From: Dictyostelium discoideum
Taxonomy: Eukaryota
NCBI GenBank assembly: GCA_000004695.1
Contig: CM000150.2
Span: 2,784,001-2,848,000, forward strand
Length of the DNA stretch: 64,000 nt
Direction: 5' to 3'
Positions 11,744 to 49,171 of this stretch are shown in pieces (the first letter of the stretch is position 1; the number at the start of each line of letters is the position of its first letter). The position numbers and the translations under genes are program-made. Below the pieces are notes generated by a model. That model did no database searches. It was not told the DNA's origin and saw only the letters and a list, made by a program, of their open reading frames with translations.

Positions 11744-13105
11744 TTATTTCTTTTTTGATGGGGCAGCAGCACCTTTCTTATCACCGGCTTTACCTGGGGC
11801 TTTCTTGACGGTTGATTTGATGACACCGACGGCGACGGTTTGTCTCATATCTCTGACGGCGAAACGACCTAATGGTGGGTATTCAGTGAAGGATTCAACA
11901 CACATTGGACGAGATGGGGTTAATTCGACCATAGCGGCATCACCATTCTTTAAGACGACGGCGGCAGTACCTTCTTTGGCAACGACGGCACCAGTACGAC
12001 GATCAACTTTATCGACGATTTCAGTGAATTTACAGGCAATGTGAGCAGTGTGACAATCTAAGACTGGTGAGTAACCAGCATGGATTTGACCTGGATGGTT
12101 GAGGACGATAACTTGAGCAACGAATTTTTCAGTTTCTTGTGGTGGATCGTTTTTGGAGTCACCAGCGACCATACCTCTTTTAATTTCTTTGACTGAAACG
12201 TTTTTAACGTTGAAACCTACATTGTCACCTGGACGGGCTTCTGGGAGTTGTTCGTGATGCATTTCGACTGATTTGACTTCAGTTGAGAGACCAGCTGGGG
12301 CAAAGGTGACGACCATACCTGGTTTAATGATACCAGTTTCGACACGACCTACTGGAACAGTACCGATACCACCGATCTTGTAGACATCTTGTAATGGAAT
12401 ACGTAATGGTTTATCGTGTGGACGTTTTGGTTCGACGATGGCATCGAGGGCTTCTAATAAAGTTGGACCTTTGTACCATTCCATTTTGTCGGATCTTTCT
12501 AACATGTTATCACCATTCCAACCTGAGATTGGGACGAAGGCAACTTTTTCTGGATTGTAACCAATCTTTTTGATGAAAGATGAAACTTCCTTGACAATTT
12601 CGTCGTAACGGGCTTGTGAGTAGTTGGTTGATTTTTCATCCATCTTGTTGATAGCAACGATCATTTGTTTGACACCTAAAGTGTAAGCAAGGAGAGCGTG
12701 TTCACGAGTTTGACCGTTTTTGGCGATACCAGCTTCGAATTCACCAGTTGGGGAGGCAATGACTAAGACGGCACAATCGGCTTGGGAGGTACCAGTAATC
12801 ATATTCTTGATGAAATCTCTGTGACCTGGGGCATCAATGATGGTGAAGTAGTATTTGGAGGTTTCGAATTTCCATAAAGCAATATCGATGGTGATACCTC
12901 TTTCACGTTCAGCCTTTAATTTATCCATAACCCAGGCGTATTTGAAGGATTGTTTACCCATTTCAGAAGCTTCCTTTTCATACTTTTCGATAACTCTCTT
13001 ATCGATACCACCACATTTGTAGATTAAATGACCAGTGGTGGTTGATTTACCAGCATCTACGTGACCAATGACGACAATGTTAATGTGAGTTTTCTCTTTA
13101 CCCAT
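11744..13105 (-). CDS. efaA: Translation elongation factor 1-alpha, single exon.
   Basis: 453-aa ORF beginning [37 protein letters not shown], with GTP-binding motifs and the conserved EF-Tu domains II and III. Third codon positions are markedly GC-richer than in neighbouring genes, typical of a highly expressed gene. From the sequence alone I cannot tell which of the two Dictyostelium paralogues (efaAI or efaAII) this is. Confidence 0.95.
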
Positions 13106-14116: not shown

Positions 14117-14819
14117 TTATAAATCAATAGTATCTTCAACAAAATAATATTTAGTTATTGGGTCAGTAGTACCAATTTTCATTAGTTGTAGTTTTGAAAA
14201 GTTTTGAAAACCAAATTCTATATTTTCATCCATATGTTTCTTTTTTTTTTTTTAAAAATTTGTTAGAAACTTTTTGATTTAAAAAAGAAAAAGGTGATGT
14301 GTTTTTAAAATTTATACATACTTTAATTTGAAGATAATTTCTTTGTATATTTTTACCTTTTGCAATTGTAATATGAGGATGCCAATCTCTATCTTCTTCA
14401 ACTTTAATATTTTGATCTTTAAATAATTTATATAAACGATTTCTATAATCCACTATTTTACTATACCCATCATGATTTTCATTAACACCAGCCCATATAA
14501 CTCTATCTTTAAATGAACCTATTCCTTTTATAGATGAAGAAGGTTTATTATTTTCACCAAATATTTCAGTAGCTAATAATTTAGTTTGTGGCATTAATGT
14601 TGATTTAACAATTGATAATTGTTCATCTGTTAATTCCATAACAAATACAGTAACATGAAATTTTTCAGAGGGAATTAAATCTTTTTCAACATATTTACAA
14701 CTTTTTTTCATTGAATTTTGAATTTGTTTAAGTTGGTTATAAATTAATAATTCTGTAATTTGAAGTCCAAAAAAATAATTCATTCTACCAACATTGGATT
14801 TAACTAATTGATTTGACAT
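14117..14819 (-). CDS. 2H phosphoesterase family protein (LigT/AKAP7-CPDase-like), by motif only. Two exons: 14819..14322 and 14239..14117.
   Basis: Two H-x-T/S-x motifs are present (HVTVFV and HPHITIAK), but no other conserved features of the family support the assignment. A GTATGT donor follows ...NYLQIK. An AG acceptor after an A-run precedes KHMDENIEFGFQNFSKLQLMKIGTTDPITKYYFVEDTIDL*. The intron is 82 bp. Confidence 0.5.
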
Positions 14820-15519: not shown

Positions 15520-15986
15520 TTATTGCCATGGTTTAATATTATAGTTTACAAATAATGAACCGGTTGGAAATGGTGGTATTTTATAATAACTATTGAAAAT
15601 TGGGTGTAAAACACGAGCAGCACCATCAAGACAAGTTAATGGAATTGGATAGAATCTTCTAGCTCTTTTACTTCTAACTTTAAAATCTTTATCAGTAACT
15701 GGACCCATATCACTAACCCAACCGGTATTGACTGAAGAAACATGAATATTTCTTTTCTCTAAAGAGGCACTAATTGATCTTGTCATCATATTTAGTGCAG
15801 CTTTTGCCATATTAGTATGAACGTGATTACCACTTTGATTATTATAATCATAATCAAAATCACCTTCTGATGATGTAACATTTACAATATAACCCCAATC
15901 TAATTTTGATACTGTTGAATTGTTATTATTATTATTATTGCTATTATTATTATTTCTAAAATTATTATTATTAAATCTATTTGATC

Positions 15987-16059
<73 letters not shown>

Positions 16060-18510
16060 TAATGATTTTCTTTCCATTAGAGGTATTAATTGAGAAACAA
16101 ACATGGTTGGTACAATTGAATTTACTAAATTAACTTCACCCATTTCAACAGTTGAAATTTCATCAATTTGTGAAGTCCAACTTGTTTTATTTCTCATATC
16201 TAATGGTTCACCATGTTGATCATATTTTTCAGATGGGAATAGAATTTCATTTCTATCATCATTATCTTCTGGTAATAATGTACTTTCAATGATTGAAGTT
16301 GAAGAAGAACCACCAAATTTAATATCATTAACTCTAACTAAAACCATTGATTTGTCAGAATCACTATCACTATCTGATGCATTGATAATTTGCATATCAT
16401 CATCAGACGATATCTCTTGAAATTGATCAATCATTTTATCGGTTTGATTAGTTAATAAAAGTTGTTTAATTTCCTTTTCACCGGTTAACAAACTATGATA
16501 ATATGCTTTTGGTCTACGAATTGTTTGAGCAGCATTATTAATTAAAATATCAATTCTTGGGAAATTTGATTTTATATGATTTATAAATTCTTGAACAGCA
16601 GCAATACTTCTAAAATCTAAACCATAGATATGTAAACGTGATAAAATATCAGGATTTGAAGAGAACCTTTCTTTAAATGCTTCATTTGCAAGATGTGGGA
16701 ATCTTGTAGTTGCAATTACATTATAACCATAACCTAATAACAATGCAGCACATTCAAAACCAATTTTGATTCTAGCACCAGTTACCAATGCATATTTTTT
16801 ATTTAATAAATTGAAATCTTTAAATAAATTTTCATCAAATTCTGTACGTGAGAAATCATTAAATTCATTACACTCTTTACAAAGACTTGATGGTACCATA
16901 TCAAGTTTTGAATACATAATTTTCTTTTTACAAATGTAACAACTTATTAAACCATTTACAGTTAAGCATGAAATTTTCCAACAATAATCTTTTATTGGAC
17001 CAAATTTTGTAAAGCTACCAATTAAATCTGGATTTAAAATTTCATGAATTTCTTTAGCCAAGAAACGGGGTTTAAAATTTTTACGTAAAAATTCCAAAAT
17101 TCTTGACATTGGTTTAAATTGAACATGATGAAATGGAATTGAAGTATATTTTTCATATTTTTCAGAAATTGAATTTCTTGCAACACAACGATCCAAATGT
17201 TTACAATATTCAAAGTTTTTACATTGAAAACCTCTAACAGAGTATTTTTGAGAACGTTCCATCTTTGTTGTTACCAAAATTGTTCTATTATTAAATGCAA
17301 TGGCAGAACGTGGAATCATTTTAACATTACTACCATTATAACAAATTGCTGTACAATCTAAATCACAAAATATTAAATGTTCTTCAACATTTTTTGAAAA
17401 TAATGTAATGATTTGAATTGGTCTAAATTGATCACCAATAATTGTAATTGAATTTGGTGTACGTATAAAACGATAGGAATATTCATTTTTATCAATCCAT
17501 TGTTTAATTTCAATTAATAATGATTCAAGTTTACTTTCACCCATTTCAATTGTTGGTGCTGTAATAATGATATCGATATCTGATTCTGATTTTTTAAATT
17601 CTTTTTTTATTTTTGTTTGAAATTCATATTCAACAGTTTCATTGGAAAATTGTAATTTCGATTTCATTTCATCATAAAGTTTAATATATTCCAATGGTAG
17701 AGTTTCAATACATGTTACTAATGCACCACCAATTAAATATGCATTTGCTTCATTTTCATTACCATTACCAAAGGTTATATTATCTGAAAGGCCAAATGAC
17801 ATTATTGAAAGAAGTTGTTTAACAATTTCAATATTTGATGCTAATGAAAGTTCACCATACTCTGAGCCATGAATACCACGAGCTCTTGATGATATATGGT
17901 ATCTACCAATTTTTGATAATTTGAAATCATCTGGATTTTTAATATTACCTTGTTGGTTCTCTAAATCATAGACATCAAATGAATGATCTTTAACTTTTTT
18001 ATAAATCCTTTCACTAATTTCATAATCTTTACTTTCATCCATATTATTACATGCTTCATCAATATAGGCTGATCTAATCTTTAATAAATCTAATGATAAA
18101 ATTGAATCATGCAAATCTGTATTAAATAATAAATCTTTTTCAATCCAACATTTTTCATTCTCTTTTGAATTTTCTTCAATAAATTTATCAACAACACATT
18201 TAAATACTTGAGCAACTTTATCATCTAATTTAATATAAACTAAAAATAATTGAATAATTGTTACAACATCTTGAGTTTTACAATTTTTATTATTTGAAAA
18301 ATTTTCTTTAAATTTTGTATAAATTTCTTTAATATAACAATATGATTTATCAAATAAACTTTCTTTTTCACCATTATTATTATCATTATCAGTTTTATCC
18401 TCGTCTAAATATAATTTAGCCATATCTTTAATAAAAATATCATAATTTTTACCATCAATCATAAAACTTCTATATTTTTCATTATTATTATTATTATTAT
18501 TATTATCCAT
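15520..18510 (-). CDS. Uncharacterised multidomain protein. The N-terminal region of about 550 aa is unknown and contains a C-x2-C...C-x2-C element. The C-terminus has a short-chain dehydrogenase/reductase (Rossmann) fold.
   Basis: 996-aa ORF. The C-terminal SDR signatures are ALVTGARIKIGFECA (TGxxxGxG) and ILINNAAQT (NNAA). A long poly-N insertion interrupts the SDR domain. The expected YxxxK position reads TNMAK. The N-terminal part has no family I can name. Confidence 0.6.
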
Positions 18511-18636
18511 TTTTTTGATTTATAATATTTAAATCTTTTAATTGGATATTTTATTTATGGAAATAAAAAAAGAAGGAAAAAAAAGAAAAAAAAAAGATTT
18601 AGGTCATTAATAATTTTATTATTTTTTTTTTTTATT

Positions 18637-18687
<51 letters not shown>

Positions 18688-19383
18688 TTTTTTTTTTTTT
18701 TTTAGAGGTTGGTGTGATAAAAAAAATTGTGCATCGGAGTGGTGAAAGTAATTTTCAATGGTGATGGCTTTATTTTTAATTTTTTTTTATTTTTTATTTT
18801 TTGCTTTTTTTTTTTTAATAATTATAATTTACATTTTCTTTTTTTTTTTTTTCTTTTATTTTTTTCCTTTATTTTTTTCTTTTTTTTTTGAATGTTTGTT
18901 TTTTTTTTTTTTTTTTTTTTATAACAAAAAAGTTATTACAAAAATTCTAATTCCATAAAAAATGACGCAACATTTTTTTTATTATTTAAATATACCCCCC
19001 CCCCCCAAATCTGAATATCGATGAAATTTAAATTAAATTTAGAACAATATTATCTGCCACCTTAAAAAATTGATCATCTAGTAAAATTGAATAAAATTTC
19101 ACTGATTTTTAATCCAAACAAATTTCCCACCAAAAAAATGAGAAAATAATCATAAAAAAAAAAAATTTTCAAAAAATAATAAAACAATTAAGAAAATTAA
19201 ATAAGCACCGTCACCAAATTTTTGATCACATTTTAAAAGATACATACCTTGAATCCCACTATTTCTTATTATCTTGGTTAGTAATCTTTGAAAAAAAAAA
19301 AAAAAAAAAAAAAAAAATAGAAAAACTATTTTTAATAAATAATTATGAAAATTAAATAAAAAAAAGATTATATAATTTTTTAT

Positions 19384-20805
19384 TTATATATTGGTATTAT
19401 TATTATTTAAAAAATAACCATTTTCAAAAGGTGAAATTTGAGGAAATAAAAAATTTAAAGTTTTATCAATTCTTTTTAAAATTCTATTATTGAATGTTTC
19501 AAAGTTATCATTTAAACAAGTTGTTTTAGGTTTATATTTTAAAGAGGTTATTAATTTTAAATATTGACGAAATTGTACATTTTTTAATGGTATTAATCTA
19601 TTGAAACCAGGTTTAACTTGAAAAGTACTATACTTTCTTGTGAATTGATTAGCAGTGAATGAAAATTGTAAATCCTTTGGATCTCTAAATCTATGAGATG
19701 AAGTTTCTTCAACCTCTTCTTCTAATTTCTTATAAATTAATTTCAATATCTTTTTATTCAATGGTAATACACCATGATCACTTCTATATCTTTTCGATTT
19801 AAACCAAAGTTTATCCAATACCCTATTAGTATTTATCATACTTGTATAATGAATACTGCCTCTTGTACCATTTTCATAGATTTCAAAATCACTTGATATT
19901 TTATGTTGTCTTTGAAATATATATGGATTAAAATTTTCATCATAAAAATCACTTGGTAAAACTGGATTACTAAAATAAATATCATCATTTAAATATAAAA
20001 AACAATTTGATACTCTTTTTGGTAAATTAAATAAATTAATTTCAATTGAATCTGAATTAAATGTTGGTAAATGTGATCTATAAAATTTAAAATTATTTTT
20101 AATTAACATGTGTGTGTCTGTATATTTTATTTATTTATTTTTTTTTTTTTTTTTTTTAACTTACTTATTTTTATAAAGTTCAGAATGAAATATAAATTCA
20201 ACATTATCATCAATAGTTGATGTATTGAACCATGTAGGTATTTGATCAGCAGTTACTATGAAAATTTTTCTAACCCATGGTGCATTTTTACGAACACTTC
20301 GTAAAGAATACTTTAAAATACCATAGTCTCTATATCTACCTTTTGTAATACTTTCTAATCTATCATTGTAATCAACATATTTTATATATTTTTCAATATT
20401 AACAGGATCTGATCCATTAACCCATGTATAAACAATATCAATATGTTTACAATCTGATTTAAATGGTTTAATTCCTTGTTCTCTTAAAAATATATTTTTA
20501 GTTTTTTTTTTTTTTTTTCCTATTAATGATGATTCTTCTTTTTTAAATAAAGTATTTGATGTTTGTTCTATTTCAACAATTTCTTTTTTTTTTTATTTTT
20601 TTTTATTTTTTTTTTTTTTGGAAATTTTGGTGGGGTTAATATAAGTTACTAGAATGTGGTAAGATATTTTTAGAAAAAAAAAAAAAAAAAATATTGTTTA
20701 GGTACCTTGTAAAAATTCAAAACTTGTCATTGAGATTATTGTTATAAAAACTAAAAATAATACAATAGCAATTGTTTTAAATCTCCATTTTAGTTTATTT
20801 ATCAT
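19384..20805 (-). CDS. Stealth-family protein (GlcNAc-1-phosphotransferase/GNPTAB-like), type II membrane topology. Three exons: 20805..20706, 20582..20165 and 20077..19384.
   Basis: Stealth conserved region CR1 is DIVYTWVNGSD. CR2 is YRDYGILKYSLRSVRKNAPWVRKIFIVTADQIPTWFN followed by ...SHLPTFNSDSIEINLFNLPKRVSNCFLYLNDDIYF. The N-terminal signal anchor is MINKLKWRFKTIAIVLFLVFITIISMTSFEFLQ. The splice sites are CAAG|GTACCT...AG and AA|GTAAGT...TTTTATAG, and the phases are consistent. Confidence 0.75.
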
Positions 20806-21073: not shown

Positions 21074-21318
21074 CTAGTCGGTTACAGATTTTCTTACATA
21101 ATTTTCATTATTACCCATATTGTAAAGAAAATCAATATGAGATTTAAAAGCAGCATAAAATGTTGGTTGAATATTATAATGTACATCATACTCATCACAA
21201 ACCTTTTTAATAATTGGTACTAATTCACCATAGTATTCTTGTGAAATTGATGGAAACTATTATCATTATTATTATTATTTTTTAAAAAATAAAATATTAA
21301 AATTAATAAAACTATTTC

Positions 21319-21349
<31 letters not shown>

Positions 21350-22555
21350 AAAACTTACCAAGTGATGAACAACTTGTAAATTTACACCACCCGAAAAAAA
21401 TAAACACATATATGAATTAATACCATAATCTTGAGTAGTTTTAATTTGATGAATTGCCCAATCTTCATCAACATTTGTTGGTTCATCATTTTCATTTACA
21501 CTTGTTGCAACAATTTTTAAATTATCAGCAGAATGACTAACTTGGAAACCAAAGGATAAATAAAGACCAAAAAAGAATTCAGCGATAAAGAAATAAGTTA
21601 ACAAGTTTACTAAACTATGATATTGTAATGGTATGATGAATCTAAAAACAATGAAAACCAATTTACCAATGATAAAAGAGATGATTTCAAAATTTGAAGC
21701 ATTTGCAGTTCTAACCCTTCCAATTGAACCCTCTGTGAAAACACTATAATCACATAATCTATATTTAATCGAATATAGACCATACAAAAATGGGGCGTAT
21801 ATATGCTGATATTTATAAATCCAATATTTATTTTGGTATGGTGTTACAATTCTAAAATCAACTTCACTATCGCCAATATCCGGATCTGCATTTCTAATAT
21901 TTGTATACACATGATGACCAATCACATGCTGATTACACCAATAAAAGAACGAGGCACCAATGAATAGATCGTAAGTGGCGCCTAGCCATTTCCATACTTT
22001 TGGATTATGAGAGATCGCTGAATGGCACGCATCATGCATCATATGTAATGAGAATAGACTATTGGATAATGAATACACAATTGCAAGTAAACAATTTAAA
22101 TAGAAATTTTCAATGAATGCATAATGGCTAACATAATAACTTGTAATTAAAAACCAATAAACAAATATTAATCTTGCTATTATACCAAATGCAAATTTTG
22201 GATCTTTATTTGACTTTTTAAAATGCTCTCTAACTCTTTCTTTTAATGTTGAATAGAATTTACTTTTTTCAACATATTTTGGGAATTCCATTGTTGAAAC
22301 TTGTCCAATTTCATATTGTTTTAACATTTTACTTGGTAAATCTGTCATTGGGTGATAACTTTCAAATAAATTTGTAACATCTCTACCTGCTGCTAATATT
22401 AAAACTTGTTCACCTCCTGGATGATGTTTTATAAATTTTGTAATATCATAAACTAAACCATCAATTGAAATCCAAATTCCATTTTCAATTGTATTATGTT
22501 TTGAAATTTCTTTCCATGAATATAATTTTTTAAATAATTTTTTCTCGTTTTCCAT
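21074..22555 (-). CDS. Front-end (delta-5/delta-6 type) fatty-acid desaturase with an N-terminal cytochrome b5 domain. Two exons: 22555..21369 and 21256..21074.
   Basis: The cytochrome b5 heme motif HPGGEQV is present. The histidine boxes are HDACH, QHVIGHH, and QVVHH|LFP, which is split by a 112-bp intron with a GTAAGT donor and AG acceptor. Resembles the Dictyostelium fadA/fadB delta-5 desaturases. Confidence 0.85.
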
Positions 22556-34160: not shown

Positions 34161-34997
34161 TTATTTTTTTGAAGCTTTTTTAGTTTTTTTTGGTTTGGTA
34201 GCAGCTTGAACTTTTGGTTTTAATTTAGAGGTTGGTTTTTGGGGTGCTAGCTGTTTTTTTTTATCTTTTTCACCTCTTCTCATTTCAGCAATGCTTAGTG
34301 TTTTTGCAATACCATCGGTTTTTGATTGACGACTTGGTCTAGTTGAAATTGGGACAATTGGTTGTTTTTTTGGGGTATCTTCTTTTTCTTCTTCTTCGTC
34401 TTCTTTTTCTTCTTCATCTTCTTCCATTTCTTTTTCTTCTTCTTCCTCCTCTTCTGGTTCTTTTTCTTCTTCTTCCTCTTCTGGTTCTTCTTCTTCTTCT
34501 CCTGGTTGTTCTTCTCCTGGTTGTTCTTCTTTTGTTTGTTCTTCTTCAGGTTGCTCTTCTTCAGGTTGTTCTTCTTCTTCTTCTTCTGATTGTTCTTCTT
34601 TTGGTTCTTCTTCTTCTTCTTCTTGTTGTTCTATTTCTTTTACTTTTTCTTCTTCTTCTTCTTCTTCTTCTGGTTGTTTTTCTTGCTCTTCTTGTTCCTC
34701 TGGTTCTTGTTCATCCTGTTTTTCTTGGGTTGGTTGAACATTTTCTTCATTTTGATTATTACTTTTTTCGTCATCATCGTCATCCATTTGTTTATCTTCT
34801 ACTTTTTGATGGATAGAGGTTTCAAGGGATTGATCATTTGATTTACCCTCAACATCACTTTCTTCTTTTTGTTGAGAGTTGATAATACTTTCATCATCTT
34901 CAATTTCTTGGAATGGAGAATCCTTTTTATCTTGTTCAGTATTTTCCATTTCAACGTTTTGATTATCGTTCTTTTCTTCATCTCCCATTACCTCATC

Positions 34998-35058
<61 letters not shown>

Positions 35059-35465
35059 GTATCACCTTCTAATTCTTGAAATTTTTCATCATCTTCTTGT
35101 GGTTGTTGACTACTAATATTAGATAGAATTGAATTATTTAAATCATTAAAAGTTGATAGATTTTCATCACTTTTTTTTAATGACTCATTTTCTTGAGATT
35201 GAACGAATGATGAATCACTTTGTTGAGATTGAAAAATGTCACTATCAACAGTGGTATCGTTATTGTTTGAACCTTTATCGGTTGGAGTTGAATATTTTTC
35301 ATCTTGGTCAAAATCAATTGATTGACCAGATGTGTTACCACTTGTTTTACTTAGAAATTGGTTTGTAAATGGTGAATTAAATTGATCATTATCAGAATCG
35401 TCATCTGAAGAATTTTCATTTTTAGAAATTTCTCCACCACTTTCATCACTTTCATTCATTTTCTT

Positions 35466-35498
<33 letters not shown>

Positions 35499-35504
35499 TT
35501 CTTT

Positions 35505-35587
<83 letters not shown>

Positions 35588-36159
35588 CTTCTTCATCATT
35601 ATTATTAAATTGAACTTTTGGTAATGGTTTATGAGCTACTACTCTTTTTGGTTGTTTTGGTGAATCTTCTTCCTCTTCTTCATCTTCTTCTTGCTCTTCT
35701 TCATTATCATCCTCTTGTTCATCTTCATCATTATCTTCTTCATTATTATAATTATATTGATTTTTTACAATTTGACTATTATCTTCATCAGAGGAAGAAC
35801 CAATTTCCATTGGTTCATCTTGAGTGCCACCACTACTACTACTATTTACGATTGGTTGTCTCATAAATTGTTGAGTTGGTACTCTATAATTACCATCATC
35901 CTCTTCTTCACCATCGTCATCATCATCATAACTTTGATCATCTTCTTCATCTTCTTCATCATAATCATCATCATCTTGAGGTGATAAGAATTTTTGTTGT
36001 TGTTGTTTTGATGGTTGTAGTCCTGAATAGGTAGAGAATTTTGGTGGTTCTTTACCACCATGTTTTGGTCTTTCAAAATCTTTAAATCTATCTTCTTCTG
36101 AATCATCATCTTCTTCGACAATATCATCTTCAAGTTCTTCTTCAGTATCATCAGTTTCA

Positions 36160-36258
<99 letters not shown>

Positions 36259-39200
36259 AATAGTTTTTGATGTTTTTGATTTTGTAAGAATTGTTGAGCT
36301 TGCGAAGCTTGTTGATCATCTAATTCATCATCGTCATGAACTACAGCACTATCATCATCCTCTTCTTCTTCATCTTCTTCATCCTCTTCTTCATCTTCGT
36401 TTGAATCAATTTTATAGATATCTTCAAACTCTGAATCTTCATCATCATCATCGTCATCATCAGAATCATAATTTTCATCATCATCATCATCATCATCATC
36501 AGAATCAGGCATACCTCTTTTCTTTAATTTTGGAATTGGATATTCTCTATTTAAACTATCTTTAAATCTAACATTTGTAGTTTTCTTGGCAGAACCACCA
36601 CTTTTAAGTGCAGATTTTAATGGTGAACCTTGTGGAGTACTACCACTAGCAACTGATAAATTTGGTGAAGATGTTGTAGTTGAAGTTGTAGTTACCATTG
36701 TTGGGAAAATCATATCAAGAGAAGATTTATTTGAGGTTGCAACTTGTTCTTCTTCTTCTTCTTCATATTCTTCATCATATTCTTCATATTCTTGTTCTTT
36801 TATTTGTTTCTGTTGTTGTTGTTGTTGTTGTTTTTGTTGTAGTAATAATTGTGAATGAACTTCCATTTGATGTTGTAAAAGTTCTTGTTGTCTTTGGAAA
36901 TCTAAAAGTTTTTCTTGTTGATCTTCAAATTCTTTTTTAATTCTTTGTTGTTCTTGTAATTCTTTTTCTTGTTGAGCCAATCTTTGTTGAATTAATAATC
37001 TCTCTTGTTGTTCTTCATTTGATTTCTTTGTTAGAATCTCTAAATTTGAAATGGGAGCAGTTGATAAAGTTGATGATAAATATAAGGAATCATTATAAAG
37101 TTTTGGAATTGGTGATGGCATTACAATTGGTTTTTGAATGAACGATTGTGGTGGTACTAAATTAACTTTTGAAATTGATTTTGGTAATAATGGTATATTA
37201 TCTTCTTCACTATTTAAAAATTGTTGTGGTTGTGGTTGTTGTTGTTGTTGTTGTGATTGTGGTTGTTGTTTTGGTTTATCTTGTGATTCATTTGTAATAT
37301 TAAAATGAATTGGTCTTTGAATTAATGGTAATGATTGTTCATAATTTAATAATAAATGATTGATAGTATCATGACCATCGAAAACATCACCATTGACTCT
37401 AGTGGATTGATAGTAACGATTAACTTTACAAGCTTCAGGAATACGACCTCTTTTAATATAATATAAAGAGATTAGAGATGAAGCTTTCATTTTGAAAAGG
37501 AAATGTAAAAATACTTGTTCTTCAATTTCATCAAGAGACATATTTAAAATTAAATCCAATTTCTTTAAATTAAATGTATAATTAAATATTGAAAATAATA
37601 ATCTTTCAATTGAATCGATTGTTAATTGATCTTGTAAACGATTTCTAAAACTACGTTGGAATAAGATTGCCTCTAGAATTGAATGATTTGATAAAAGAAT
37701 TCTAACATATAACTGAGCTTCATCTGGAGTTTGTGGTTGGAAATTAAAACCTTTCATTAAAAGTTGAGCATAATTTTTGAATCCAAAACTATAAAATCTT
37801 GCTAAAATTGGATAAAGATATTTCTTTGTAACTTTTGAAGAATTTAATAATGTAAATGCACTTTTAATATCTTCATCAATTAAATTACTATTATTTTCAC
37901 GATTGGTGGCATCTTCATCATCATCATCATCGTCATCAATATTCATTTGATCTTGTGATTTTAATAAATAACTATCTAATTTCCAAATACCCATAATAAA
38001 ACTATAATAATTACTAGAGATATGGAAAGAACCAAAGAATGATTTTAAAGTTTCCGATTGATGTAAACTCTTTCCATTACTACCATTACCACCATTAAGA
38101 TCAGTTAATTCTAAATCTATTAATAAATAGAATAGTACTGAAATCTTTTTTGTAAATTGTTGAGATGATTCAAAAATTTTAAAGAATGATTTCATAGTTT
38201 GAGAATTATGTGGTGGATAAGAACTCATTATTTGATTACCATCAGTCGTTGTTGTTGTTGTTGTTGTTGTTGTTGATGTCGATGACGATAAATCAATATT
38301 TGAATAGAATAAATCAATTAATAATCTATCCGAAAGATATTGATTAGTTCTACCAATATTACCCATTTCAATTGTTAATTTCTCTTTAATAATTTTTCTC
38401 TTTTGAATTGTATAATTTCTAACTGATTCCATATCATTCAATGTTGATGGTTTAAATAAACCAAAATATAAAGACCATTTTAAAATTTCAATAAATCTTG
38501 CAATATTAATTGCTTGATCAATTTTAATTTTTAAAGTATCTGGTAATAAATTGGAATTTGAATTTAAATTTGAATTTGAATTAGAACCACCACCACCACC
38601 ACCACCATCAATTATCATATCATTTGAATTTAATTTATTTAAATTCTCTTGAATATATCTATCAGCTAATGATTTAAAAATACGAACTAAATCTGTAATT
38701 TTAACATAAACTAATTCTAAAAGTTTTGGTGTATCAGAATTTAATTTACTATAAATTTCAGAGAGACCAAAATTTCTATTTAATGTTTGAAAATGTGACC
38801 AAAACGATTCCAATATTAATTTTGCATTTGATGATTTATAATTTAAAATGTAATCCTTTACAATTGAAATTAAATTATTATTTAATGAAAATATTAATAA
38901 ATCATTTCTTTGTTGTTGTTGATCAGATTTATAGAATGGGAAAATATTTGATTCTACAAATTTAACATAGACTGAATTTAAAAGTGTTGATGATTCAAAT
39001 AAAATTGCACCCTTATTCGATAATTCATATACTAATCTCTCTTTTGGACTTAAATAATCTATATTATCAATAGTTGAAAATGATAATAATTTAAATTTAA
39101 AATTTGGATGATAAATTGTTAAATTTAATTTATTTTCTTCAAAATTTTCATAATTATCATCAAAGTTATCACTACCACTACCACTATTACTACCACTAGT

Positions 39201-40352
39201 TTGATATTGATCTTCTTTACTTAAAAATACTTTACTATTATTATTTTCTAATTGATAAAGTACATTATTTAAAACTGATTGTTGATCAATCCAAATTGAA
39301 TGATAACCATTATTTTTAAAGTTTCCATTCTCATCATCCAATTTAATTGAGTGTAACCAATGTTGTTGAGAATTTGAACTATAATTTATACCATGTCTTT
39401 CTAATAAAAATAAATCAAATAATTTAATTTCAATTTTAATTGTACCATTTTCAATGAATTGATAAATAAATATTGATTTTGATTTTGGTATAATTCCATT
39501 ATTTAATTTTAAATCTTTATTTTGATAAAGATATGACATTAATAAAATTTCACCAAATTGATTAGTTTGACTATTAGTTTGATTAATTTTTGTAATATCA
39601 ATTGGTGTATCAACATTTTGAGTTAATGAAATTAAATTATTAATTGTTTTACTTGAATCTGGTGATAATTGTAAATCAAATTCTAATTTATATAAAATGA
39701 TTGAAATGTTATTATTTGAAGATTTATTATTCTTTGAACCTCTACCAATCCATAGATGACTAACACTTGATGTATCATCATCTTCCAACTCTTGATAGAG
39801 AAAGTTGGTGACTGGTGATTGTTTATTCTCTAAATGACTAACACTTGAATGCAATCCAACCTCTCTAGCTGGTGAACAATAATACAATTTGAAGTTGTTA
39901 CTTGAGAATAACTGAAATGTTCCAATGCTATAGCCAATTGCTATCATTCTTAAACTCTCGATATATTCAATCGATGTAACATCCAATTGAGTAAATTGGT
40001 TGGTTTGTTGTTGTTGTTGTTGTTGTTGCTGTTGCTGTTGTTGTTGTGGATATTGGTGTTGTAATTTACTCTTTAAATTTTGTTGTGTAATACCATTACG
40101 ATCTTCAACTAAATATCCCTCTGATGAATGTTTACCTGCTGGATATTCAAATTTGTAACTATTTCCATTAAATAATTGATCACCACCTAAAATAAAATAT
40201 GGTACTAAATTATTGGTCTTATTATTAAAGAAATGTTTATAATCATAATTTGTTATATCTTGTAATATTAATTGATTCTTTTTTTTTTTAAAAAAAAAAA
40301 AATACAAAATAGATTAAAAAAAATAAAAAATAATTAATATTTGATTTTTTTC

Positions 40353-41930: not shown

Positions 41931-44040
41931 ATGTTAACAGTAAATTTTTTAGCAACAAATAATTTTAAGACAAAATATTCCGATCTTTCTAAAGATACAA
42001 CGATTGATAGTCTTAAAATACAATTTTATAGAGAACATTCTTCAAATTTGCCTTTGCCATCTTCTGTATTCATTGAAAGTGATGAAGAGTCAAATAATGA
42101 TAATCATGTAAATAATAATAATAATAATAATAATGGTGATAAAGAAGTTGAATTTAAAGAAATTAATCAAAGTGATGAAAAAGTTGTTGAAGAAAAAACC
42201 AATCATTATTCAAGAGCACATTCATCAATTATTCATTCACATCAAATTAGATTTATTTTCTCTGGTAAACAATTAGAGAATTTTTCAACACTTGAGGAAA
42301 ATAAAATTGAAAATGATTCAACTATTATCGTTGCAGTATCACCATTCCTTGTAAATATCGAAGAACAATTCATTCAACATCAAAAGAAACAAAATCAAAA
42401 AGAATCATCAAATCAAGACCAATCAGATACAGTATTCGTTGGTGTTGCTAAAAGAGATCTCTCCTATATGGGTGGTACTATTGAAGAGAAAATAAAATAT
42501 AAACTATCAATTAATGATCGTTCATTTAAATCATCATCATTACAATCAAATTCTCAAGAATTACAAAAATTAGATGATTCAACTACCTTTAATCTCTTGA
42601 GTAGAATTAATAATTTCAATGATTCAACTATAACTAAAGATCAAACTGCATCCCCAATTATTCCAAATGTAAATTTAATTCCATCAACTAAATCATTTAA
42701 TAATGATTCTAAACTTGATTCAACATTAGAAACTAGTTTAGATAGATTATCACTTTATGAAATTCCAAGTAGAGATAAAATGGATTATTTAAATTCATCA
42801 TCACCACCAACAAATAATCCTACTACTACTACTTCTACCGCAACAACAACAGCAACAGCAACAGCAACAACAACAACAACAAAAACTAATCAAGAAATTA
42901 TTAAACCAAAATTATCAATTGAACATTTTTCACCAAATGGTGAAGTTTCATTTGCTGATTCAATTTCAATTATGTTTAATAGACCATTCCTTGATTTATC
43001 ATCAAATACAAAAGAAATTGAACTTCCAATTAAAATAGTTCCACCAGTTAAAGGTGCTAGTTGGCAATCAGTTGATGGTATTCTTTTTAGATATAGATTA
43101 CCAACATCTGAACCAACAACAACAACAACAACAACATCCTTTGGATTAAATTCATCACAACCAAACTTTTTCCCATTATCAACAACCTATAGGGTATCGG
43201 TTGAATGTTCAAACTTTAAAAAACTTTTCAAAGAAGATATTGCTCCATTAGAATATTCATTTACAACTTCACCACAATCATTACTAAATTGGGAATTTAA
43301 TAATGATTTAATCTTACCACAAATCAAATTAACATTTTCACAACCAATTGATTGGAGTAAATCTTCTGCCATTGCAAATTTATTTTCAATTAAAACCAGT
43401 TCAAAATTAGATCCAAAACTCACAAATCTTTCTTTTGTTCCATTAAACACTAATGATGAATCATGTCATTGGAAGAAACAATTGGAGCAAAGTTCAACCA
43501 CTGTTAGAGATAAAATATTTTGTGTTTCAATTACATCAAAGAATATTATAAAATATGAATCAACCATTGAAGTTGATGTTAAAATTGGTTCAATCGCTTC
43601 AAAGGAAGGTCCAAATTTTAATCCAATGAAAAATATAATTGGAAGGATTTTAACACCATCATTTCTTAGTATAAAAGCTGATTTATTACCAGAGTCCATA
43701 TTAAGTAAAGCAACAGAAGTTAGTTTTTCTTCAAATAATATATTGGAATCTAAAATTATTCCTTCAAATCAATATGACAATTATTTCTCAATTATACCAA
43801 AGGTTGAAATTACTTCAGTCTCTATATGTGGTAAAAGTGTTCGTATTTTTGCCAAATTTAAACATTCCCAAACTTATTCAGTTTCGATTAAAAAGTTTAA
43901 AGATATTTATGGTCAAATTGGTGATTCTCATGGAATTTTCTCTTTTCCAAATATTCCAATTAAAATTTGGACTCATCCATCAATTTCTTCATTTACAAAT
44001 AATTTTTATAATTTAGATCCAAATTCACAGTATGTATTAA

Positions 44041-44080
<40 letters not shown>

Positions 44081-44162: not shown

Positions 44163-47100
44163 GACCAATTTTTAAAATTAATTCAACAGGTACAGATCAA
44201 TTAATTATTAGAGCATTTACAGTTTCAAAGAAAACATTAAAAAGAAAAACAAAAATTAGTGGATCATTAAAAGTTGATGTTAATAAAATTAAAAATGAAA
44301 ATGGTGAATTTGAATCAATTTCAACAACTACAATTGATTTAGCAAGTTTCTTTGGTGGTAGAAATGTTCATAGTTGTAAATTTCAATTACTTCTTTTTTC
44401 AATTTCATATCCTGGAAATTTAATTTCTCAAGTTTTTGAAAAAGGAGATGATGGTACACAATTTTTATTACAATATACACCAATCAATGTAAATTCTTTT
44501 GAAGTTGGTAATCAATTCATTATAAATGCAACCGATTCAATCTCTAGAGAAAATTTAAAGAATTTATCATTAAAAGTTTATAATGATGATGATGGTGATG
44601 AAAAAGATAAAAAATCATTCAAACAATACACGATAACAGATTCACAAATTCAATTATTTGAAAAATCTACAATCGGTGGTTCTCATATGTTTATTTCAAC
44701 ATTGGATGGTAAAAACAAATGTTTATATCAAGTTCCTATCAATGAAATCAATAAGAAACCTTATGAATTCACTACCATAATTTTTGCCCAACAAGGAATT
44801 TTTCGTCCTGGCGATACTGTTAATGTTAAAGGTACAATTAGAGTTGTAGTTGATGAAGGTGTAATCTTACCAGATTCAAAGTTTTTCTCAAAGTATATTG
44901 ATGTTTATCAAAATGATGATATGGTAAATATATCATACACTTTAAAGGATGCAAAGAAAAAAGAAGTTGCCAAAGGTATAACAAAATTAAATGAATTTGG
45001 TTGCTTTGATCTAAAGTTAGTATTACCATTGGATATTAATTTGGGTAACTGTTCAGTGGTTTATAAATATTGTAATGAAGAATTCTCATTCTCTGATATC
45101 AATGTTCAAGAGTTCAAATTGAAAACATTTTTATTGGAATGCTCAATGTCAACCGAATCAAATCGTGGTACCTTTGAATTGGAGACACCATTTGGTGTTG
45201 AATTATTTGCAAAATCATACACTGATGAAATTATACCAAATACAACTGTAGATTGGAAAATCACCGTAAGACCATTGACACCAATCCTCTCGAATTTGGA
45301 TAAAGCTTTCAATTACTTTAGACATGAAACTGATAATATGTATTTTGGTGAGAGTTTTGCTTATAAAAGTAAAAGATCACCAAATGGTAAACATAATTTA
45401 GATTTGGTTCTTCAAGAATGTTCACAACGTTGTGAAGTTAGAGTTCATGCAACTGTAGCCGATGCTTCAAATAATCAAGAGGAAATCTCAAAGAATTTTA
45501 TTGTAGAGAATACTAAATTCACAAACTTTGGTGTTTTAAGTTCCAGTTCAACGATAACTCATCTTATTAATGTCGGTCAAGATTTCCATGTTGATATGTC
45601 ATTGCGTTACTTTGACAATCAACAATCATTTGATGGTAAAATCGATGCAGAAATTCAAAAGATTCCATATGAAGAAGATTTATTACCAGAGAATGTTCAT
45701 AAGAGTACAATCATACCACATACTGATACTCCTTTAAGATTCTCTTATCAATTCAATGAAACTGGTTATTATAAAATAAAATTAAACTATAGTAATGGTG
45801 GTGAACAATTATCTCAATATCATACCATTTCATTGTTTGTATTTGGTAAACAATCTCAAGCAGAATTAGAATATAAAGAATGTACTGCACCTGTTAAACA
45901 AACAACTACAAACAACACCTCATTACTCTATGGAAAGGAAACATTTAAAGCTAAACCAAAACTTGATATCAATTGTTCATTAGATAAAGAGATTTATCAA
46001 TTGGGTGATACAATTAAAATGTGTATCTCTTCAAAATCATTGAATGCCAAGGGTTACATTTGTTGCTCCAAAGAGAATACAATCATTAATGTCATACCAA
46101 TTCAATTGATTGATGGTCAACATGATTGTAAATTTGAAATCAATGAAAAAGTTTATTATCAACCATTATTCTATGTTTATTTAGAAGGTAGTTTGTTGGT
46201 GGAAATAAATGGTGGCCAAAAGGTTAATCGTTTAACAAGTTCATTCGTAAAGGTACCAGTAAAGATTGATTACACTGACAAGCTATTGAATGTTCAAGTT
46301 GAAAAATGTAATAAATTCCAATCTCCATCAGAAGAATCAAATATTACTATCAGTGTAAAAGATAAAAATCAAAAACCACTCTCAAATGCTCATGTTTCAT
46401 TGATTATTGTTGATCAAGCAGTTTTAGATATAACAAAGCATTCAATTAAAACCCAATGGGATCCATTAAATACTTACTTTGGAGATGGTTCATTTTTTAT
46501 TGGTAGAAATAAAATGAACTCTCTATTGGACAAAACAATCTATAATGATCCAGTAGAAATTAAAACCATTGAATTGGATCTTGAAGATTTCCAAGGCGAT
46601 AATGAATTACAAATCATTAATATTAAATATATGGCAGGTAGAATCATTCAATTAAAAGTATCGGATGAAACAACCATTGGTGAACTTCAACAAATGATTA
46701 TGGACAGAGATGGTCTTCCACCATCATCACAACGTTTATTCTACTTGAATAAACAAATTGATTCAAACGCAACAATGAAACTTAAAGAATTTTCAATCGT
46801 TAATAAAGCAACTCTTAATTTGGTAATCCGTTTACATGGTGGTACAAATACACCACCTTCAGATGACAAACCACTAGCTCAAGATTTGAATAAACCAATT
46901 AGAGTACGTTCAAACTTTATGCCTTTGGCTTACTTTGGAAGTTTAAATACCAATCAAGATGGTAAAGTAACATTTACTTATAAACTTCCAGATAATCTTT
47001 CAACCTTTAGAGTTATGGCTTTGGTTCACTATGGCAAAGATCAATTTGGTAGTTGTGAACATACTTTTATATCATCGTTACCAATAATGGTTCGTCCAAG

Positions 47101-49171
47101 TCCACCACGTTTCTTAAATCATAATGATAAAGCAATATTCCCAATTATGATTTCATCAATCGTTGATTGTGATTTATTTTTTAGTGGTGCAATTCGTTCA
47201 AATAATTGTAACATTGAAACCAAAGGATTCAGTGGTGTACTTCCAGCAAAATCTAGAATCATATTCCCTGTCCATGTTAATGCTTTAGTTTCAAATTGTA
47301 TTGCAGACTTTCAATTTGTTGCAAAAACTCAATTATTAGATCATTCACAAGAGATTTGTGATGCAATCTCATTTAAATTCCCTGTTTTCTCTTCAAGTGT
47401 ATTGGAGACAACAACTATCAATCATAGTTTAGTAAATTTGAAATCAAAGAAAGAAATTTCATCTCACAACTTAAAACTTGATAATTGGAAAGATTTAGAT
47501 CAACAATTGGGTGGATTAACAATTACTCTATCAAAAACTAAACTTCAAAAGATTTCATGTTCAGTTAAAGATTTATTACATTATGAATACTCTTGCTCTG
47601 AACAAATTGCTTCAAAATTATTAGCCCTCTCCACCTTTATAAAGTATCCACATTTATTAGAAGAAAAAGATATCAAAGCTTTAGGTCTTGAGAATATTAA
47701 AACCAATAAGAAACCTTTGGAAGATATGGTTGAAATTTTAAAGAAACGTTATCAATCATCAGATCATTCATTCACTTATTTCGATGATAAAAAGAGTGGT
47801 TCATATGAATTTGTTTCAGTATTTGTTTACTTTGTATTGAATCAAATCTCTGATCTATCGGAAGAAGCCAAAAAATTGGCATCAAAGGCTGAAGCTTACT
47901 TTTCAGGATCTGCCAATGTAATGGTTTTTAATAGAGATTCTTATGAAAAGAATAAATTCCAATATCTTTTAGGTAAAGCATTTGCATCATTTGTCTATGG
48001 TACCATTAAACAAACCTCTGTACCTCATACAAGTTTTATTTCAAAGGTTTTACAAACTGCAAAATTCGATTTCTCAAATAGCCAATATCAAGAGATCTTT
48101 ATCTATCTCTCACAATTCTACAAGAGTCACCTCGATTTCAAAAATATTTCAAACTATGTTACAATTACTGGTTCCTTGGCTTATGTTACTTCTAGTCCAA
48201 TCTTTGGATTCTATGGGGATACTCGTCTTCAGTCAATTTTAATACTTTCACTTTTAGAAAGTGGAAAGACATCACATAAAGATCATCCACTCTTGGAACG
48301 TTTAATAAGTGGTTTAGCTCATTTTGTAAATAAAGAAGGTCGTTATGGTACTACTCAAGCCAATGCATTCAATATCTTTGCAATCTCTCAATATGAAAAG
48401 ATGAAATTATCAGGTGAAAAAGTTGATCCAACATTGGATGCAAGTATTATTTTAGGAAATCGCTATTTGGAAAAGAAAAAAGTAACAATTGGTGATTCAG
48501 AAAATTATACAATCACTGTACCTTTCTCTCAAATCCTAAAGAATCAAAAACCATTGATAATTCAAAGAAAAACAAAAGGTACCCTTTATTATAGCATAAA
48601 TCTCTCCTATGCTTCATTGAATCCAATCTCTAAAGCTATCTTTAATAGAGGTCTCAATATTAAAAGAACCTATTATCCAGTTTCAAATTCAAATGATGTT
48701 ATTTATCATTCTCCAATTGGTGTTGACCAACCTCAAACCATTGAAATCAAAGCAGGTTCAAGAGTAAAGGTAACACTTTCAATAAAGGTCGATCATGTTT
48801 CTAGCTTTATAGTTATTAAAGATAGATTACCAAGTGGTTTGGAACCATTACTTTCAAATTCCTATTATCACAATGGTTATTATTTCAATCATGTTAATAA
48901 TCGTGAAAATGGTGTTGAAATTTATTCAAATCTTTTATATCCAGGTGTTTATAATTATTCCTATCAAACTATTGCAATTACACGTGGTACTTTTATTTCA
49001 CCATCAGCAAAAGTAAGTTTAAAAAATTTTTTCTTTTTTTTTTTTTTTTTATTTCTTTTCATATTACTGATATACTTTTTTTTTTTTTTTTTTTTTTTAC
49101 TTTAGATTGAAGAAATGTATTGTCCTGCAACTTTTGGTCGTTCTTCTTCAGAAATTGTATTAATTAAATAA
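41931..49171 (+). CDS. Alpha-2-macroglobulin/thioester-containing-protein (TEP/CD109)-like giant protein of about 2330 aa with two embedded ubiquitin-like domains. Three exons: 41931..44029, 44164..49012 and 49106..49171.
   Basis: An MG-domain-like FRPGDTVNVKGTIRVVVDEGV follows QVPINEINKKPYEFTTIIFAQQG. The candidate thioester motif is YSCSEQIASKLL (C-x-E-Q). The C-terminal CPATFGRSSS tail is encoded by a final exon reached from a GTAAGT donor. An internal ubiquitin-like domain reads MAGRIIQLKVSDETTIGELQQMIMDRDGLPPSSQRLFYLNKQ...LNLVIRLHGG, and an N-terminal ubiquitin-like segment reads IRFIFSGKQLENFSTLEENKIENDSTIIVAV. Intron 1 (GTATGT...AG) contains (AAT)n. Confidence 0.6.
44090..44160. repeat. 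(AAT)n tract inside intron 1 of the A2M-like gene.
   Basis: Direct reading. Bounded by the GTATGT donor at 44030 and the AG acceptor at 44162-44163. Confidence 0.85.

Follow-up and report, generated by a model that had tools for sequence, protein, structure and literature searches.

The question raised by this locus is what kind of protein arises when a short-chain dehydrogenase/reductase (SDR) is joined to a long N-terminal half of no obvious affiliation. The stretch analysed, hereafter the window, comprises 64,000 nucleotides of Dictyostelium discoideum DNA (GenBank GCA_000004695.1, contig CM000150.2, positions 2,784,001 to 2,848,000), and the gene in question occupies positions 15520-18510 of its minus strand. 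A preliminary description, made from the sequence alone, reported here a protein of about 1000 amino acids in which an N-terminal region without a nameable family precedes an SDR domain with an unusual active site. Both the protein and its SDR fold are borne out by the present analysis. The N-terminal region can now be named, in that residues ~215-445 form a Pol-beta-fold nucleotidyltransferase homologous to Gad2, a protein of phages. The picture that we favour, at a probability of roughly 0.55, is that of a bifunctional enzyme, combining a Gad2-type nucleotidyltransferase with an NADP(H)-dependent oxidoreductase. The gene and its main parts are as follows, in window coordinates; pLDDT is the predicted local distance difference test score of the AlphaFold2 model described below.

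15520..18510, minus strand: complete single-exon gene, 996 codons and a stop, given by the open reading frame and an identical gene call; the flanks are AT-rich intergenic DNA.
17869..18510, minus strand: residues 1-214, an N-terminal region that is lineage-specific and gives no alignment with D. discoideum Q55C33.
17176..17868, minus strand: residues 215-445, Gad2-like Pol-beta-fold nucleotidyltransferase core, from the family profile and the AlphaFold2 model.
16951..17175, minus strand: residues 446-520, poorly conserved linker, with pLDDT <50 and little conservation.
16870..16941, minus strand: zinc ribbon C524-x2-C527...C544-x2-C547, at least 90% conserved in the fused members and forming the N-terminal part of the SDR module.
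15523..16803, minus strand: residues 570-996, SDR domain of classical fold with a non-canonical active site, matched by Pfam adh_short.

That this is one gene appears secure. The frame begins with ATG and is uninterrupted over 2991 nt, for which the chance of 996 codons without a stop, at the base composition of the window, is ~1e-43; an independent record, NCBI assembly GCA_054883475.1, holds a single-exon gene call of 996 residues that is 100% identical and lies in the same gene order. In this regard, it is hardly conceivable that two neighbouring genes have been merged through a mis-called frame or a mis-assembly: low-complexity tracts can indeed hide frameshifts, and nothing more specific speaks for such a merger, whereas the open frame, the identical call in a separate assembly record and a collinear architecture in ~50 proteins of several phyla, D. 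discoideum Q55C33 among them, all speak against it. The strings quoted in the preliminary description likewise lie in the translated protein as read (VTGARIKIG at residues 576-584, INNAAQT at 657-663, HVHTNMAK at 896-903, CYIC...CKEC at 524-547 and SDIDIIIT at 310-317).

Residues 1-560 give nothing above threshold in Pfam, NCBIfam or PDB sequence searches, and the matches of this half to YfjL_C (18 bits, where the cut-off is 28), to DUF5377 and to bL20 are treated as chance. Residues 1-214 have no Pfam or PDB match, the model is of low confidence (pLDDT <50) at residues 191-223, and the BLASTP alignment with Q55C33 begins at residue 219. An exhaustive HMMER search with residues 11-565 as the query nevertheless found 174 relatives, 150 of them listed, of which the best is only 39% identical (E 1.6e-29); what they have in common is a core equivalent to residues ~215-445 of the full-length protein. 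One member of this family, from Tilletia (P0151), bears a precomputed, weak tag for PF26128, the Gad2 family, and the Pfam copy searched here returned no PF26128 match, even for that protein.

The affiliation becomes evident on comparison of profiles. Nine diverse Gad2 homologues, taken from Supplementary Table 10 of the study that described Gad2 (bioRxiv 10.1101/2023.05.01.538930), were aligned over the part that precedes the Gad2 C-terminal half (~residues 200-400), and hhalign matches the eukaryotic family profile to this alignment with 97.7% probability (E 1.5e-12) over 171 columns. The motifs held in common are aGG[ST][IV], [SN]D[ILV]D..F, IQ[LI]I, s..EI...FD and R..KY..[RK]G[FY], and 16 family members are matched directly by a plain Gad2 hidden Markov model (HMM), the best with E 5.7e-10. 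At the level of the family, these profile comparisons establish homology to Gad2. Gad2 itself is a Gabija anti-defence protein of 400 residues from phage SPbetaL7; it is needed for the anti-Gabija activity, is toxic on expression in bacteria, appears in its AlphaFold2 prediction as a nucleotidyltransferase enzyme, and has 170 homologues, nearly all in phages and prophages (bioRxiv 10.1101/2023.05.01.538930). The gene in the window departs from the phage or prophage origin of that family, being chromosomal, in a dictyostelid, and near housekeeping genes such as those of eEF1A and myotubularin. A tblastn search of 50,697 phage records with P0151 and the window core gave no match, and PADLOC gave none except to ankyrin.

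Structure prediction adds the fold. The preliminary description had recommended AlphaFold followed by Foldseek for the N-terminal region, and an AlphaFold2 model of residues 191-570, made from a 25-sequence alignment, is confident in the core (pLDDT 85-97 over residues ~230-435). Its topology of strand, helix, two-helix insert, strand, helix and three strands is the core fold of the Pol-beta superfamily. Foldseek independently places CCA- and A-adding enzymes first, with probabilities of 0.98-1.0 and E values of only ~1e-3; the closest structural relatives of the core act on RNA 3' ends. The elements of the core are listed here.

17725..17733, minus strand: I260-G261-G262, hG[GS] motif where strand 1 passes into the following helix; G261 is invariant, and the motif faces IAGG of Gad2.
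17587..17697, minus strand: residues 272-308, a helical insert (model helices 83-98 and 106-116) that separates the GG and DxD motifs and lies opposite a gap in Gad2 in the hhalign comparison.
17563..17583, minus strand: S310-D311-I-D313-I-I-I, DxD motif of metal-binding type in strand 2; D311 and D313 are invariant.
17407..17424, minus strand: R363-P-I-Q366-I-I, strand 5 with an invariant Gln, facing IQLI of Gad2.
17353..17367, minus strand: C382-D383-L-D385-C386, an invariant acidic pair and candidate third-carboxylate site, facing FDFT[VI]C of Gad2.
17227..17247, minus strand: K422-Y-S-V-R426-G-F, the R..KY..RGF motif that closes the core, facing RVQKYEDKGY of Gad2.
17185..17223, minus strand: C430-x5-C436-x-H438-x3-C442, a Cys/His patch (fe.c.H.prcd) in which H438 is conserved in at least 90%, and C436 and C442 in at least 60%, of the SDR-fused members.

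The hG[GS] and [DE]h[DE]h motifs of nucleotidyltransferases are found at the expected positions of secondary structure, G261 lying where strand 66-70 ends and helix 72-78 begins (model numbering), and their spacing is 48 residues as against the usual ~10-15. The acidic SDIDIIIT segment, which the preliminary description recorded simply as a feature of the N-terminal half, is indeed present, and its identity is that of the catalytic-type DxD motif of the core; it aligns with NDLDVYF of Gad2 and with SDIDFLIV of the minimal nucleotidyltransferase 9xbd_E, which is the sole PDB sequence match of the family profile (E 0.22). Family members reach the NTP_transf_2 and Polbeta models below threshold only (E ~0.1), always at the SDxD motif. 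D383 and D385 are placed after strand 5, the strand itself carrying Gln366, and a correspondence of C382-D383-L-D385-C386 with RRDFTINA of CCA enzymes is seen in a weak alignment only. Gad2 members carry CCA-like strings such as GGSLRDY and FDFTIN, and Gad2 is collinear over all motifs with approximate CCA sequences, in a comparison weak enough (E 8e-4, probability 25%) to be a hint only. On our reading, the core is a Gad2-type nucleotidyltransferase, and Gad2-type domains are a distant branch of the head of CCA-adding enzymes and poly(A) polymerases (PAP). The Cys/His patch at residues 430-442, in a region without a confident model, is a possible second metal site.

Whether the core is an active enzyme is a separate matter. 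The family-invariant pattern is G ... DxD ... Q ... DxD ... R ... KY..RGF; G261, D311, D313, Q366, D383, D385 and R401 are invariant and all present in the window protein, which also retains R363, K422, Y423, R426 and G427. An alternative is that the core has lost catalysis and serves to target the oxidoreductase, binding a nucleotide or a nucleic-acid end and bringing to it the SDR or, in other fusions, a PARP or ankyrin domain. Several features would suit such a role, namely the occurrence of the core as an accessory domain in many architectures, the unusual insert between GG and DxD (37 residues here, up to ~70 in relatives), the invariant Gln of strand 5, at a position where many nucleotidyltransferases have an acidic residue, and the loss in the window protein of six conserved positions of the N-terminal module. 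Set against these is the invariance of G261, D311, D313, D383 and D385 in ~150 relatives, residues of a kind that pseudo-enzymes usually lose, and the toxicity of SPbetaL7 Gad2 would fit an active enzyme. An inactive targeting domain is thus, in our view, quite improbable.

The second half of the protein begins earlier than the SDR fold itself. The preliminary description had assigned the C-x2-C...C-x2-C element to the N-terminal domain; it is instead a zinc ribbon, which accompanies the SDR in bacteria and eukaryotes alike. The profile HMM of the eukaryotic family matches bacterial open reading frames through the zinc-ribbon segment, and in the bacterial standalone homologues a CYxC...CxxC ribbon lies directly upstream of the Gly motif, so that the Cys element belongs to the SDR module. 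In a scan of one genome per prokaryotic species, in which relatives containing both [IV][LV][IV][NQ]NAAQT and NMAKA[AS]LN were counted, at least 595 bacterial loci encode a relative of this module. Eighty loci were kept for inspection, and 43 of the 80 sequences passed a strict motif filter; all 43 have TGxR[LIV]KIG and HPHTNMAK, and the bacterial homologues share with the eukaryotic proteins the insert motif D..Q.DLR..NSW...E.LEV..VN. As judged from sequence, zinc ribbon and SDR are one module from bacteria to eukaryotes, and the module of the window protein is of bacterial ancestry. The bacterial proteins are ~510-520 residues long (for example L055:5557-7092) and have, before the ribbon, a conserved basic segment (R..L..aaG..srP ... 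TgIR.aR) that gives no Pfam match.

In this eukaryote, the genes around the fusion are little guide to its function. Around the bacterial genes, no operon is conserved at the 80 loci, and no Gad2-like reading frame occurs among the neighbours. The only recurrent neighbour is a DEAD-box RNA helicase (11 of 80 loci), which in seven loci (L001, L043, L055, L063, L068, L075 and L076) directly adjoins the SDR gene on the same strand; these seven come from three phyla, with members in Planctomycetota, Flavobacteriia and Bacteriovoracaceae. A DbpA RNA-binding domain is found in three of the six helicases scanned. Loci L076 and L043 have two helicase genes each.

The SDR assignment of the preliminary description holds, with its boundary moved such that the SDR proper begins at ~570. 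Pfam PF00106 (adh_short) matches in two halves, residues 572-668 and ~870-960, at 64.4 bits against a cut-off of 26.6 (E 1.3e-17), and the Rossmann-type alpha/beta fold of the classical SDR superfamily is thereby recognised by the family HMM. Its elements are as follows; conservation refers to 40 eukaryotic and 43 bacterial sequences aligned jointly, and 'both kingdoms' to these two groups.

16759..16782, minus strand: T577-G-A-R580-I-K582-I-G584, Gly-rich motif for dinucleotide binding, in variant form; conservation of its T, G, R, K, I and G is at least 90% in eukaryotes as in bacteria.
16696..16710, minus strand: T-T-R603-F-P after strand 2; R603, F604 and P605 are conserved in both kingdoms.
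16498..16539, minus strand: N658-N-A-A-Q-T...R-R-P-K-A-Y-Y671, the NNAG equivalent and RRPxx[YF]Y, in both kingdoms.
16147..16497, minus strand: residues 672-788, an insert peculiar to the family that follows strand 4 and precedes helix 4, its N-terminal part variable and acidic.
16177-16239, minus strand: residues 758-778, conserved part of the insert (FP....D.hGE.lDlR..tsW), with D771, R773 and W778 in both kingdoms.
16108..16146, minus strand: E789..E792-V..V-N797...P801, helix 4 with the tetrad Asn, from the joint alignment.
15919..16059, minus strand: residues 818-864, poly-Asn low-complexity loop, a gap in all 39 other fused members and with pLDDT <50.
15862..15882, minus strand: N877-V-T-S880-S-E882-G883, region of the catalytic Ser; E882 and G883 are invariant in both kingdoms.
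15802..15825, minus strand: H896-V-H898-T899-N-M-A-K903, the YxxxK position with Thr for Tyr, preceded by two invariant His.
15718..15732, minus strand: V-N928-T-G-W, family motif VDTGW, with Asn in the window protein for the conserved Asp.

The dinucleotide-binding apparatus is present in variant form. The canonical TGxxxGxG is replaced by TGARIKIG, with Lys for the middle Gly, and TGxR[ILV]KIG is invariant across the subfamily; at the end of strand 4, NNAAQT (658-663) is a conservative variant of NNAG kept in both kingdoms. The invariant R603 after strand 2, together with the basic residues of the Gly motif, suggests a preference for NADP(H), as it would in SDRs generally. The variable part of the insert after strand 4 has low pLDDT. 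The poly-N loop that the preliminary description saw interrupting the fold is present; as far as the alignment goes, it is specific to the window protein and without significance for the family.

At the active site, the Asn-Ser-Tyr-Lys tetrad of classical SDRs is incomplete. N797, S880 and K903 are present, and T899 stands in place of Tyr. The preliminary description had read TNMAK at the YxxxK position and allowed that this might be a misalignment; on aligning the second half of the domain with solved SDRs, T899 faces the YxxxK Tyr of 3wxb (SYRCSK) and of 2p68 (NYSTTK), and 1sny (AYRTSK) agrees once a one-residue alignment gap is allowed, and the reading of TNMAK is therefore correct. Misalignment is excluded. 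The position is Thr in 100% of the 43 bacterial and 85% of the 40 eukaryotic sequences, the other eukaryotes having mostly Ser (HPHSNMAK), and no Tyr is conserved between the Ser and Lys positions. Only one Tyr, Y671 of the RRPxx[YF]Y stretch that follows strand 4, is conserved in both kingdoms. The canonical Ser is itself variable, position 880 being Ser in 92% of eukaryotic members and Ala in 43 of 43 bacterial ones.

What, then, would such a site do? One answer is that it does no chemistry. On this account, by analogy with atypical SDRs of the NmrA/HSCARG type, the SDR would be a non-catalytic NAD(P)H sensor tuning the activity or localisation of the sole enzyme, the Gad2-like core. This option was raised in the preliminary description, and it draws on the absence of the catalytic Tyr in every member, the replacement of Ser by Ala throughout the bacterial homologues and the strong conservation of the dinucleotide-binding motifs. 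The conservation, however, goes further than a sensor would need. Fifty-one positions are at least 90% identical in each kingdom, many of them polar and near the would-be active site; they include T577, G578, R580, K582, I583, G584, R603, D632, N659, A660, A661, Q662, T663, R666, P667, D771, R773, W778, E789, E792, N797, E882, G883, H896, H898, N900, K903, D928 and W931. The window protein retains 50 of the 51, the sole loss being D928N. Such conservation of polar residues across kingdoms argues for purifying selection on a working site with non-canonical chemistry; K903, N797, H896, H898, E882, D771, R773, W778, Q662 and R666, invariant from bacteria to eukaryotes, exceed the needs of nucleotide sensing. 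Moreover, the bacterial module stands alone, without a partner domain to regulate or a conserved neighbour, and true SDR enzymes without the Tyr exist, DECR2 being an example. A redox-sensing nucleotidyltransferase is on balance unlikely, although it is the least unlikely of the alternatives weighed here, and a protein with both halves active is preferred.

Two closer assignments of the SDR were considered and set aside. A pteridine-reductase type would rest on NCBIfam PRK09135, whose match is far under its cut-off. The other is membership among DECR2/PECR-type enoyl reductases, which come top by sequence and are undistinguished by structure, at rank 53.

The distribution of the fusion bears on whether the two halves work together. 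A C-terminal SDR is also present in 50 of the 150 relatives listed, and the preliminary description's suggestion that proteins of the same architecture be sought in other Amoebozoa was rewarded there and beyond: the fusion is carried by Polysphondylium violaceum, Heterostelium album, Synstelium (two paralogues), the tubulinean Copromyxa, several chytrid fungi, and D. discoideum itself in Q55C33. The remaining architectures, from Pfam scans, lack the SDR. They comprise BRCT-WGR-PARP_reg-PARP-core-Ank in D. purpureum F0ZGW9 and in P0121, WGR-PARP_reg-PARP-core, core-Ank (fungal 'ankyrin repeat proteins') and DUF1604-core; PBZ, BTB and ubiquitin domains occur each in one or two proteins of a 46-protein batch. 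A transcriptome-derived protein of 1353 residues (P0064) has a Gad2-like core, a second nucleotidyltransferase (an MTPAP-like PAP/TUTase palm) and an SDR together, and in another of 1442 residues (P0056) a WD40 repeat at the N-terminus is followed by tandem Gad2-like cores (residues 457-675 and 1039-1247).

As the preliminary description supposed, the fusion seems not to have been described. Fused homologues are annotated just as 'hypothetical' or 'SDR family protein', the literature searched describes neither the fusion nor Q55C33, nor does it mention a nucleotidyltransferase domain in PARP proteins, and fusions of this kind are not discussed in the 2009 classification of the nucleotidyltransferase fold. 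The link between eukaryotic proteins and Gad2 is likewise absent from the literature searched.

A mechanism can be sketched on this basis. Residues ~215-445, as a distant offshoot of the head of class II CCA-adding enzymes and poly(A) polymerases, would most likely bind a nucleoside triphosphate with Mg2+ and transfer the nucleoside monophosphate onto a hydroxyl of the substrate. Residues ~524-996 would most likely bind NADP(H) via the TGxRxKIG, TTR and NNAA motifs, and redox chemistry without the canonical Tyr could draw on K903, N797, H896, H898, T899, E882 and possibly Y671. Fusion of the modules in many lineages makes it probable that they work one after the other on a single substrate. 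As to what that substrate is, the sugar of a nucleic-acid end, or else a nucleotide resembling ADP-ribose, is a guess with weak support, to which the CCA/PAP-like fold, the fusions with PARP, BRCT, WGR, PBZ, PAP-palm and DUF1604 domains, the DEAD-box neighbours and the sensing of DNA ends reported for Gabija (PMC12904381) each lend something, all of it weak.

A bolder version of the same idea would have cellular Gad2-like nucleotidyltransferases modify nucleic-acid ends or ADP-ribose, coupled in this protein to an NADPH-dependent, Tyr-independent reduction of the terminal sugar or base by the zinc-ribbon SDR. We regard it as doubtful, its likelihood falling between those of the redox sensor and the inactive targeting domain. 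Were it true, it would amount to a new two-step pathway of end processing or modification, of which the reductase is common to many bacteria beside DbpA-type helicases and the transferase is common to phage Gad2; the eukaryotic BRCT-WGR-PARP, PBZ and PAP-palm fusions would then hint that Gad2 nucleotidylates ends and so blocks DNA-end sensing by Gabija.

Several observations weigh against a bifunctional enzyme. The Gad2 assignment rests on the family profile and a predicted structure, the window sequence by itself matching the Gad2 profile weakly (E 0.0026, probability 12%); the curated nucleotidyltransferase HMMs NTP_transf_2, Polbeta and PolyA_pol are not matched by the window protein; and hhalign of the family against two approximate CCA-enzyme sequences is not significant (E 0.13, at the GG segment only). 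As of 2026, the mechanism of Gad2 is described as 'yet to be elucidated' (PMC12904381). On the SDR side, loss of the Tyr, and in bacteria of the Ser as well, is equally expected of a non-catalytic NAD(P)-binding module. D928N and the six substitutions at other conserved positions of the N-terminal module suggest that the window protein may be a diverging paralogue. Fusion suggests functional coupling and is no proof of it, and adjacency to the helicase is a minority pattern, phylogenetically clustered, with 7 of the 11 loci in Flavobacteriia.

Even with these reservations, the analysis assigns both fold and family to a domain that is widespread in eukaryotes and escapes detection by the Pfam copy searched, and it ties cellular eukaryotic proteins to Gad2, such that their fusion partners yield testable hypotheses on what Gad2-type enzymes act on. 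It also defines an unnamed subfamily of zinc-ribbon SDRs, with Thr for the catalytic Tyr beside an invariant HxH, as a candidate for new SDR chemistry. Dictyostelium is genetically tractable, and knock-outs in the Q55C33 family are therefore feasible.

The surroundings of the gene are those of an ordinary dictyostelid locus. The window has a G+C content of ~22% and typical dictyostelid genes, among them those for eEF1A, myotubularin, an F-box/WD40 protein and a Cyt-b5 fatty-acid desaturase. Directly downstream of the gene lies an AKAP7-like 2H phosphoesterase (2',5' RNA ligase-like; PF10469, E 1.7e-37) at 14226-14819 on the minus strand, another RNA-end enzyme, whose placement is probably coincidental in a eukaryote. 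The eEF1A gene (11744-13105, minus strand) has a second copy with an identical product ~360 kb away on the same contig, adjoining a myotubularin-family gene, which suggests segmental duplication. The intergenic region upstream of the gene contains an (AAAT)n microsatellite at 18620-18700 and a G10 run at ~18995-19005. Beyond it, a Stealth CR2/CR3 reading frame (19384-20109, minus strand) and a Cyt-b5/fatty-acid-desaturase frame (21275-22555, minus strand) form one product of 869 residues in GCA_054883475.1, through a merging of gene models or else a genuine fusion. Further along, 34161-40307 on the minus strand is a 2048-residue frame with a TTG start, the 34-36 kb stretch having an AT skew of -0.43 and raised G+C. 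On the plus strand, 44687-49105 encodes a 1472-residue alpha-2-macroglobulin/TEP-like protein (MG2, A2M_BRD, A2M and bacterial-type MG10) with a ubiquitin domain inside it at residues 644-716, and the 705-residue frame beside it (41931-44048, plus strand) also has a ubiquitin-like domain.

It remains to set the protein beside the systems that it most resembles. Gad2 (PF26128), from SPbeta-like Bacillus phages and prophages and from bacteria, comprises proteins of ~200-480 residues in which GG and DxD are closely spaced and FDFT[VI]C is the later motif. The eukaryotic family differs in its helical insert of 35-70 residues, in FDxDC with a second invariant Asp, and in being chromosomal, cellular and fused to SDR, PARP or ankyrin domains. 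Nearest to the window core in structure are the CCA-adding enzymes of class II, together with the poly(A) polymerase of bacteria (PolyA_pol head; 3wfo, 3aql, 3h37, 4wby, 9kma), but the core is not one of them: there is no Pfam match and no significant sequence similarity to PolyA_pol, and the core is without the RRD and EDxxR template motifs and the tRNA-binding body and tail, being followed by a low-confidence linker and then the zinc ribbon. The large insert, inside motif A, is absent from both Gad2 and the CCA enzymes.

Among cellular proteins, the dictyostelid BRCT-WGR-PARP proteins (D. purpureum F0ZGW9) have the Gad2-like core after the PARP catalytic domain, their partners being PARP and ankyrin and not an SDR; surveys of the PARP family did not recognise the core and described 'long C terminal extensions' (PMC2964712). 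Q55C33 (XP_646648; 997 residues, 'short-chain dehydrogenase/reductase family protein'), for which no literature was found, is collinear with the window protein from residue 219 to the C-terminus at 35% identity (E 1e-136). The two share HVHTNMAK and the zinc ribbon, the Gly motif being TGGRIKIG in Q55C33, and they differ in their unrelated N-terminal ~215 residues and in ADTGW, which keeps the Asp, against VNTGW in the window protein.

For the C-terminal module, the closest counterpart is the bacterial zinc-ribbon SDR ('SDR family oxidoreductase'; Algoriphagus, Myxococcus, Polaribacter, Microcoleus), 30-35% identical over residues ~14-440 of the module, for which no NCBIfam model reaches its cut-off. 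It has the same zinc ribbon, Gly motif, insert motif, HPHTNMAK and VDTGW, and differs in having no nucleotidyltransferase domain, in Ala for the canonical Ser and in its own TGIR.aR segment. The best PDB sequence match is DECR2, the peroxisomal 2,4-dienoyl-CoA reductase (4fc6, E 1.6e-7), an SDR that is catalytic without the Tyr. Here QVHAGSAKAA stands opposite HVHTNMAKAA; the two proteins lack the Tyr alike, and each has His five residues before the Lys.

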